NCBI RefSeq assembly: GCF_045037415.1 | Contig: NZ_CP173438.1 | Length of the DNA stretch: 64,000 nt | Source: Escherichia coli | GTDB lineage: Bacteria; Pseudomonadota; Gammaproteobacteria; Enterobacterales; Enterobacteriaceae | Direction: 5' to 3' (one strand) | Part shown: positions 11,295 to 13,999 of the stretch, piece by piece | Layout of the letters: every line of letters begins with the position of its first letter | Position numbering within the stretch: position 1 is the first letter of the stretch | Notes under the pieces: generated by a model | What the model saw: the letters and a program-made list of their open reading frames with translations, nothing else | What the model was told of the DNA's origin: nothing | Database searches by the model: none | Made by a program: the position numbers and the translations under genes

Positions 11295-12104
11295 CTAATT
11301 CGGGCGCTCACAAAGTGGGGCTAAATATTCATATAACGTTGCTGACGAAAAGGAGACATCGCCACAGGCACGTACGGGCATCACTGGCATTAACGCATTA
11401 CAAATAACCATCTCATCTGCCTGCAACGCCTCTTCCAGAGAGGCTTGCACTTCGACAAGCTGATAAGAGGATTGTGCCAGCAAACGGATACAGAATTGTC
11501 GCATAATGCCGTTAACACCTGCCTGATCCAGTCGCGGCGTATAAACTACGTTGCCCTTCCGCCAGAACAAATTAGCCGCACAGCATTCCGTAACCCACCC
11601 TTCGCTGTCAAGGACCAGCGCCTCATCAGCGTTTGTCTGCTCAAGATGAGAGCGGATCAATACTTGCTCAAGCCGATTAAGATGTTTAATACCTGCAAGA
11701 TGAGGATTGCGCCCCAGCCGCACCGGGCTTAGCGCCAACGTCATCCCTTCGTTACGCAAACGGTCGTAATGTGCAGGATAAGCCGTAACGGAGAGAATCC
11801 GCGTTGCCGGTCCACTGTTCAATGTGCTGTACCCTCGCCCGCCACTACCGCGACTGATCACGACTTTCAGTACACCATTTTGCTGTTCTGCTGCCAGCGT
11901 TTTCATCTCTTGTTCAAGCTGAGGCCAGAAGTCACAGGAAATCATCAACCGCTGACAAGCATCCTGTAGTCGCTGGATATGCGCCGATAACAAACTGACT
12001 TTACCGTCGATAACTCTGGCGGTGGTAAAACAACCATCACCAAACTGCGTTGCCCGATCGCTTACTGCCAGCGATTCCTGCTTATGACCGTTAATTAAGA
12101 ACAT
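11295..12104 (-). CDS. pabC: aminodeoxychorismate lyase
   Basis: 269 aa [31 protein letters not shown]...; class IV aminotransferase fold; synteny. Confidence 0.92.
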
Positions 12105-12223
12105 ACCGGCTCCTTATCAGAGAATTGTTAGTGTGGCAGCATGTTCACTACGGAACAAGTCGGAATAAAAGCTAAGAAAAAAGGCCCGCAAGCGGACCTT
12201 TTATAAGGGTGGAAAATGACAAT

Positions 12224-13495
<1,272 letters not shown>

Positions 13496-13502
13496 CTAGT
13501 GG

Positions 13503-13540
13503 GACAAAAAGATAAAACTCAGGCGGTCGAACGACCGCCT
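13503..13540 (-). terminator. hairpin with U-run between acpP and fabF (partial terminator / attenuator)
   Basis: Stem aggcggtcg/cgaccgcct (13521-13540) followed on the minus strand by a U-rich run (plus-strand A-run 13505-13520). Confidence 0.6.
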
Positions 13541-13552
13541 GGAGATGTTCAC

Positions 13553-13789
13553 TTACGCCTGGTGGCCGTTGATGTAATCAATGGCAGCCTGAACGGTGGT
13601 GATTTTCTCAGCTTCTTCGTCCGGAATCTCAGTATCAAACTCTTCTTCCAGAGCCATTACCAGCTCAACGGTGTCAAGAGAATCCGCGCCCAGGTCTTCA
13701 ACGAAAGAAGCATTGTTGGTAACTTCTTCCTGCTTAACGCCCAGCTGTTCGCCGATAATTTTCTTAACGCGTTCTTCGATAGTGCTCAT
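13553..13789 (-). CDS. acpP: acyl carrier protein
   Basis: 78 aa [54 protein letters not shown]... with DSLD phosphopantetheine attachment site. Confidence 0.99.
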
Positions 13790-13999
13790 ACTCTTAAATT
13801 TCCTATCAAAACTCGCTTTCGCGATGGTTTTCGTAGTGTATAAAATGTTGAAAAATTTGCAACTAAATCCCGGCAGGTCTTACCACGATTTTACGTTATT
13901 TTGAGGCCTTACCCCCCAATAACGCAAATCATTTTGCACTAATTATTACTCATAACCACGCAGACTGCGCGCAACATGAGCATTTTGTGCAAATCGCGG

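Follow-up and report, generated by a model that had tools for sequence, protein, structure and literature searches.

The window, a 64-kb stretch of Escherichia coli DNA, carries acpP and fabF on its minus strand, the coding strand of both genes, separated by a spacer of exactly 87 bp (13466–13552). Its acpP is 100% identical to the gene annotated as acpP in E. coli genomes and corresponds to positions 1151615–1151851 of K-12 MG1655, into whose numbering window coordinates were converted as MG1655 = 1151851 + (13553 − window coordinate). Across the 2-kb stretch around the site, the window and MG1655 show 8 differences per 2000 positions. A 221-nt query spanning the hairpin site was matched in 5424 of 5426 complete E. 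coli genomes, in 5423 of them at an identity of at least 99%. The features of the junction are as follows:

13553–13789, minus strand: acpP coding sequence, 78 amino acids plus the TAA stop codon (13555–13553), from the open reading frame list
13542–13552, minus strand: 11-nt linker from the acpP stop codon to the stem, GUGAACAUCUC
13520–13541, minus strand: predicted terminator stem-loop, a perfect 9-bp stem with 7 G-C pairs and a 4-nt loop
13541–13533, minus strand: 5' arm of the stem, CAGGCGGUC
13532–13529, minus strand: loop, GUUC
13528–13520, minus strand: 3' arm of the stem, GACCGCCUG
A13519 and G13518, minus strand: AG separating the stem from the U tract
13517–13506, minus strand: interrupted U-rich tract, UUUUAUCUUUUU, 10 U of 12
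13516, minus strand: mapped acpP RNA 3' end, MG1655 1151888 (Term-seq in three conditions; SMRT-Cappable-seq at 1151888 and 1151887)
13466–13505, minus strand: fabF leader, in read-through transcripts only, with the Shine-Dalgarno sequence GGAGG at 13476–13472
12224–13465, minus strand: fabF coding sequence, 413 amino acids, GUG (GTG) start, reached by read-through
12176–12198, minus strand: fabF terminator, GGUCCG-CUUG-CGGGCC followed by U6, where most read-through transcripts end

Read on the minus strand, the spacer runs GUGAACAUCUC-CAGGCGGUC-GUUC-GACCGCCUG-AG-UUUUAUCUUUUU-G... The initial annotation had described a GC-rich stem followed by a U-rich run in the 87-bp acpP–fabF spacer, and this description is exact; the range that it assigned, 13503–13540, takes in the loop, the U tract, and the rest of the stem and misses only the first stem base, 13541. 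The NCBI RefSeq record leaves terminators unannotated, and the spacer thus appears empty there.

Stability of the hairpin within the window

Two sequence features by which intrinsic terminators are recognized occur together at the site: a GC-rich stem-loop on the transcribed strand (stem of about 5–14 bp, loop of 3–8 nt) and a U-rich tract of about 7–9 nt directly 3' of the stem. The tract is suboptimal, being both offset by 2 nt from the stem and interrupted (AG-UUUU-A-UC-UUUUU), and 5 of the first 8 nt 3' of the stem are U. In the minimum free energy (MFE) fold, CUC of the linker pairs with GAG, which lengthens the stem, and GUGAA of the linker pairs with the U tract.

The hairpin is far more stable than expected from dinucleotide composition. 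A 46-nt segment at the site folds at −18.6 kcal/mol, compared with −6.9 ± 1.9 kcal/mol for dinucleotide shuffles (z = −6.2), and none of 200 shuffles was as stable. The whole spacer likewise folds better than its shuffles (z = −3.8), with the hairpin retained in both the MFE and the centroid folds. When both strands of the 64 kb were scanned strictly for a perfect 9-bp stem with at least 7 GC pairs, a loop of 3–8 nt, and at least 5 T in 8 nt, the acpP–fabF hairpin was the only site in the window; 30 dinucleotide shuffles yielded 0.03 sites on average. A consensus terminator scan also calls the site, as 9 pairs, 7 of them GC, with a loop of 4. A looser, generic terminator pattern is not enriched between 9 and 18 kb (8 found versus 10 expected), and the argument therefore rests on the strength and position of the hairpin rather than on a pattern match alone.

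Membership in a dispersed repeat family (REP or BIME) was considered and rejected: a search of the 64-kb window for the 22-mer, allowing up to 3 mismatches, found no copy besides the original, and the 221-nt query has a single place per E. coli genome. No Rfam family matched in the spacer even at E values up to 10, and three chance-level matches were found elsewhere in 12000–15000. At 12171–12231 on the minus strand, a segment covering the fabF stop codon and terminator gave a sub-threshold match to the Salmonella sRNA STnc390 (16.6 bits against a gathering threshold of 50; E = 4.8), which probably represents chance or terminator-like similarity.

Transcript 3' ends and read-through in published data

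Transcriptome-wide mapping places RNA 3' ends exactly at this hairpin. In the Term-seq data of Adams et al. 2021 (eLife, supplementary file 1), an end is recorded at 1151888 on the plus strand of MG1655, classed as "primary, acpP", with scores of 385988 in LB at OD 0.4, 90555 in LB at OD 2.0, and 104281 in M63 glucose; the flanking sequence given for it is the hairpin sequence itself. In window coordinates this end falls at 13516, on the second U of the tract. In vivo 3' ends therefore fall within the U tract, as expected of an intrinsic terminator, although the distance of 4 nt past the stem is shorter than the usual 7–9 nt; the in vivo end need not be the point of release and could reflect processing and trimming. 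The mapped fabF end (1153228, window 12176) lies 7 nt beyond its own hairpin; in the conditions in which it was called, its scores are 4708 and 969 (Adams et al. 2021). The acpP end scores 82-fold higher than the fabF end in LB at OD 0.4 and 108-fold higher in M63, ratios that describe steady-state 3' ends and not termination efficiency. In the thresholded bicyclomycin DirectRNA-seq table of the same study, no Rho-termination region is listed at 11518xx–11519xx, and the nearest one, at 1152434, lies inside fabF (window ~12970, minus strand; Rho score 3.14, p = 5.8e-39). Read-through transcripts may thus meet a second partial termination within fabF.

Long-read sequencing of primary transcripts by SMRT-Cappable-seq (Yan et al. 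2018, Supplementary Data 1) also reports termination at 1151887/8, labelled "terminator, b1094, centre 1151873". The centre, taken from RegulonDB, is window 13531, within the loop; the hairpin and the annotated K-12 acpP terminator are the same element, with no difference between them. Four 5'-triphosphate start sites upstream of acpP are paired with the ends at 1151887/8. For each, the first sheet of the data file gives reads ending at the site, reads passing through, and reads ending at most 50 bp downstream, in that order (Yan et al. 2018):

Start site 1150933: 55 / 25 / 2
Start site 1151052: 10 / 8 / 8
Start site 1151511: 17 / 47 / 6
Start site 1151575: 81 / 123 / 9

The start sites near acpP and those within fabG therefore give rise both to RNAs that stop at the hairpin and to RNAs that continue through fabF. 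Those running from 1150933 to 1153228 and from 1151511 or 1151575 to 1153229 span both genes (b1094|b1095), and a figure in the same study shows acpP–fabF transcripts running on into pabC and mltG (Yan et al. 2018). It is important to note that the libraries were size-selected for 1–6 kb, so that acpP-only RNAs of 314–377 nt are under-counted (Yan et al. 2018); the least size-biased estimate, from the 956-nt species starting at 1150933, is about 70% termination and 30% read-through. Columns 7 and 8 of the second sheet seem inconsistent (98 reads reach 1153229, against 1 counted as passing and 156 as "within 50 bp") and were not used quantitatively. The supplements of Ettwiller 2016 and of TERMITe hold no entries at the hairpin coordinates.

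Both lines of evidence bear on one of the two roles that the initial annotation had proposed, namely a leaky terminator that would reveal itself by 3' ends at the hairpin and by unequal coverage across the spacer. The strong acpP end found by Term-seq in all three conditions supplies the former, and long reads that stop at 1151887/8 while others pass to 1153228/9 supply the latter.

A further hairpin was noted in the 5' part of plsX (16713–17783). At 17700–17725 on the minus strand lies a perfect 11-bp hairpin, CAGUGCCUGCA-GCAU-UGCAGGCACUG, with no U run after it. A strong 3' end is mapped nearby at MG1655 1147708 (window 17696), classed as "internal plsX" with a score of 79571 in LB at OD 0.4 (Adams et al. 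2021), and the site is a "novel" termination site of yceD-rpmF transcripts in SMRT-Cappable-seq (Yan et al. 2018).

Whether fabF is also transcribed from a promoter of its own bears on how many of its transcripts must cross the hairpin. SMRT-Cappable-seq lists no start sites at 11516xx–11521xx, which covers the interior of acpP and the spacer, indicating that every primary transcript with fabF in that data set had started before acpP and run across the hairpin. A promoter scan returned no site in the spacer. One −10-like hexamer, TAGAAT at 13498–13493, was discarded because it has no acceptable −35 element on inspection and is not conserved. A literature search for "fabF promoter" together with acpP found nothing. 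RegulonDB gives acpP, acpP-fabF, fabG-acpP, and fabD-fabG-acpP as transcription units, and a fabF-only unit as well. Laing et al., citing Zhang and Cronan, state that fabF also has an internal promoter, and secondary sources citing Zhang and Cronan 1996 describe acpP as transcribed "alone or with fabF". A weak fabF promoter in the spacer is thus conceivable.

Conservation of the hairpin and of the fabF start region

To place the element in a wider context, AcpP was used as the query in a comparative scan with one genome per species, which yielded 80 gammaproteobacterial loci; stems were aligned for 17 Enterobacterales/Orbales sequences. Within the Enterobacterales the hairpin is homologous and follows the form [C/U]AGGCGGUC-NNUC-GACCGCCU[G/A]. 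Pairing is kept in all 153 of the 153 stem cells of the 17 sequences, compared with only 12–38% when the 3' arm was slid by 1–3 columns as a control. Three of the nine pairs show compensatory change: C-G/U-A at the stem base in 8 sequences, and G-C/A-U together with C-G/U-A in a Pantoea symbiont. The three one-sided changes all produce G·U on the acpP-sense strand and none produces A·C, a pattern that favors a structure formed by the sense-strand RNA over a symmetric DNA site. Among relatives, structure is therefore kept more than sequence, a further property of intrinsic terminators. The first four U of the tract are invariant in 15 Enterobacterales, and the quality of the tract varies between species, from U8 in Yersinia and Pectobacterium to UUUCUG in Photorhabdus; because of this variation, leak rates probably differ between lineages. 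The distance from the acpP stop codon to the stem also changes, from 11 nt in the window to 26 nt in two Yersinia species and about 27 nt in Pseudomonas.

Strong structure after acpP extends well beyond these families. For the first 70 nt past the acpP stop codon, the median folding z is −4.0 and 79% of the 80 loci lie below −2, compared with 9% (median z −0.7) for a control region upstream of acpP. Outside the Enterobacterales the sequences are unrelated, yet the equivalent place carries a strong hairpin that in most cases has a U tract; examples of such non-homologous hairpins come from Pseudomonas (AAAACCGCAC...GUGCGGUUUUUU), Marinobacterium, Stutzerimonas, Halomonas, and the Xanthomonadales. 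These elements share with the one in E. coli the position after acpP and upstream of fabF and the strong GC-rich stem. They differ in sequence and in their longer spacers, of up to 316 nt, and are known here from sequence alone. In many of them the U tract is mirrored by an upstream A tract, an arrangement of greater symmetry and probably greater strength.

A second conserved feature of the spacer lies at the fabF translation start. The block UUUCCCUCCCUGGAGGAC..CGUG (13466–13490, minus strand) is invariant except for a few positions in 15 Enterobacterales of several families, and the rest of the spacer varies. The block sets an anti-Shine-Dalgarno-like CCCUCC directly before GGAGG, variation in the start region being confined to the two C that precede UGGAGG (CC, CU, or UU). 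The Aeromonas locus (L057) and the Oceanisphaera locus (L064) likewise have C-rich runs before the Shine-Dalgarno sequence. The GUG start of fabF (window 13463–13465) is found in 16 of the 16 Enterobacterales/Orbales loci with a mapped start, in most Pseudomonas, and in the Aeromonas locus, and this conserved non-AUG start would be consistent with selection for low translation initiation.

Structural control of the fabF start was considered and set aside. Sequestration of the Shine-Dalgarno sequence by a second helix (UUUGUCC..CUAG with CUGG.AGGACAAA) pairs in 82.5% of cells, with many gaps and no real covariation, and the fabF leader folds no better than its shuffles (z = −0.77 and 0.00). Past the U tract, a GUCCCAC motif (13496–13505, minus strand) is moderately conserved in many Enterobacterales; neither the alignment nor the folds support its predicted pairing with the fabF Shine-Dalgarno sequence.

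Probable partial termination after acpP and its alternatives

Based on these data, the hairpin is very probably the intrinsic (Rho-independent) terminator of E. coli acpP, acting with partial efficiency. As such it is a known element, catalogued in RegulonDB and mapped by experiment; the identification is correct and ordinary. A simple model would begin with RNA polymerase pausing on the weak rU:dA hybrid, which would allow the hairpin to fold in the RNA exit channel and the transcript to be released. Release would be incomplete, and some polymerases would read through, because the U tract starts 2 nt past the stem, after AG, and is broken by A and C. The released acpP mRNA would retain the hairpin at its 3' end, where it would block 3'-to-5' exonucleases after they had trimmed a few nucleotides, and such trimming up to the hairpin would explain why the mapped end is just 4 nt from the stem. 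The expected result would be plentiful monocistronic acpP mRNA and far less acpP–fabF mRNA, and the GUG start together with the Rho-dependent region inside fabF would probably cut FabF output further. Leakiness of this kind has precedent. Most E. coli terminators leak, as a general finding, and poly-U tracts are better defined at sites with low read-through (Yan et al. 2018). The intra-operon read-through terminators of dapA-bamC and prs-dauA resemble the acpP element: the hairpin is canonical, the poly-U tract is less well defined, and the genes on either side are, here as there, co-transcribed at unequal levels (Yan et al. 2018). At dapA-bamC, in contrast, a predicted upstream attenuator structure affects read-through (Yan et al. 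2018), and none was found at acpP–fabF.

A different account of the same RNA ends would make the hairpin mainly a processing and stability element: read-through would be nearly complete, RNase E or RNase P would cut in the spacer, and 3' exonucleases would trim back to the hairpin, generating the end at 1151888 and a stable acpP mRNA. RNase E prefers A/U-rich single-stranded RNA, and the spacer 3' of the hairpin is A/U-rich and predicted to be single-stranded; the end 4 nt from the stem also fits exonuclease trimming, although trimming after true termination accounts for it equally well. Popella et al. [quoted passage not shown] However, the half-lives of acpP and fabF mRNA that they report for Salmonella are similar, at about 3 min, so that stability alone would not yield a large difference in abundance. 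Moreover, the element has every sequence hallmark of an intrinsic terminator and is filed as one in RegulonDB, and in other Gammaproteobacteria the equivalent place is taken by hairpins of unrelated sequence that have U or A/U-flanked tracts; a pure stability hairpin needs no U tract, and the conserved U tracts would be left unexplained. We therefore consider a mainly processing role improbable, while processing may add to termination, so that the "processing site" offered by the initial annotation as the alternative to a leaky terminator may hold as a minor addition.

Two further proposals would give the palindrome a regulatory task, and the comparative data weigh on both. In a model of regulated attenuation, the hairpin would be toggled by a trans-acting factor, a terminating ribosome, or an alternative structure, and the FabF:ACP ratio would thereby be tuned to conditions. 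The long-read data do give different read-through fractions for different start sites and for the two media, and condition- and start-site-dependent read-through is reported at other terminators (Yan et al. 2018), but the apparent dependence on start site at acpP is confounded by the size selection against short RNAs. According to a review, RIL-seq found that the sigma-E sRNA MicL/SlrA has the mRNAs of acpP and fabF among its base-pairing targets. Because just 11 nt separate the acpP stop codon from the stem, a terminating ribosome could reach the base of the hairpin; this spacing varies between lineages, however, and its range of 11 to about 27 nt led to the rejection of ribosome occlusion as a conserved control. 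Neither the MFE nor the centroid fold contains a competing anti-terminator helix, and the spacer is without an Rfam match. Regulated attenuation is accordingly very improbable. The perfect 9+9 inverted repeat just upstream of fabF might instead be a DNA site for a dimeric fabF regulator, and what looks like RNA covariation can arise from symmetric changes in such a palindrome. However, the three one-sided changes are all G·U on the sense strand, which in a symmetric DNA site would amount to an A·C mismatch; other lineages keep the structure at the equivalent place with unrelated sequence, RNA 3' ends map exactly at the repeat, and downstream of it no promoter was detected on which a regulator could act. 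A DNA operator is hardly credible on this evidence.

With partial intrinsic termination as the preferred reading, the junction offers a textbook route to unequal output from one promoter, namely a leaky terminator between two genes. ACP is among the most abundant proteins of E. coli, and FabF is needed at much lower levels. A wider proposal is that the partial terminator is a stoichiometry-setting device under selection across the Gammaproteobacteria, rebuilt from unrelated sequences in each order, with its leak rate tuned, possibly in a condition-dependent manner, to keep FabF far below ACP. We think this proposal unlikely in its full form, though less so than the rival accounts above: conservation covers position and structure, the quality of the U tract varies (U8 in Yersinia, UUUCUG in Photorhabdus), and selection on the leak rate, or its regulation, is conjecture. 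In the Enterobacterales the terminator may act together with the invariant CCCUCCC-GGAGG-GUG translation start region of fabF. More generally, the junction illustrates that a functional terminator can be recognized from the DNA sequence by itself, since published 3'-end mapping and coverage of the spacer agree with the prediction, and the occurrence of an equivalent hairpin after acpP in most Gammaproteobacteria represents a modest extension of known biology.
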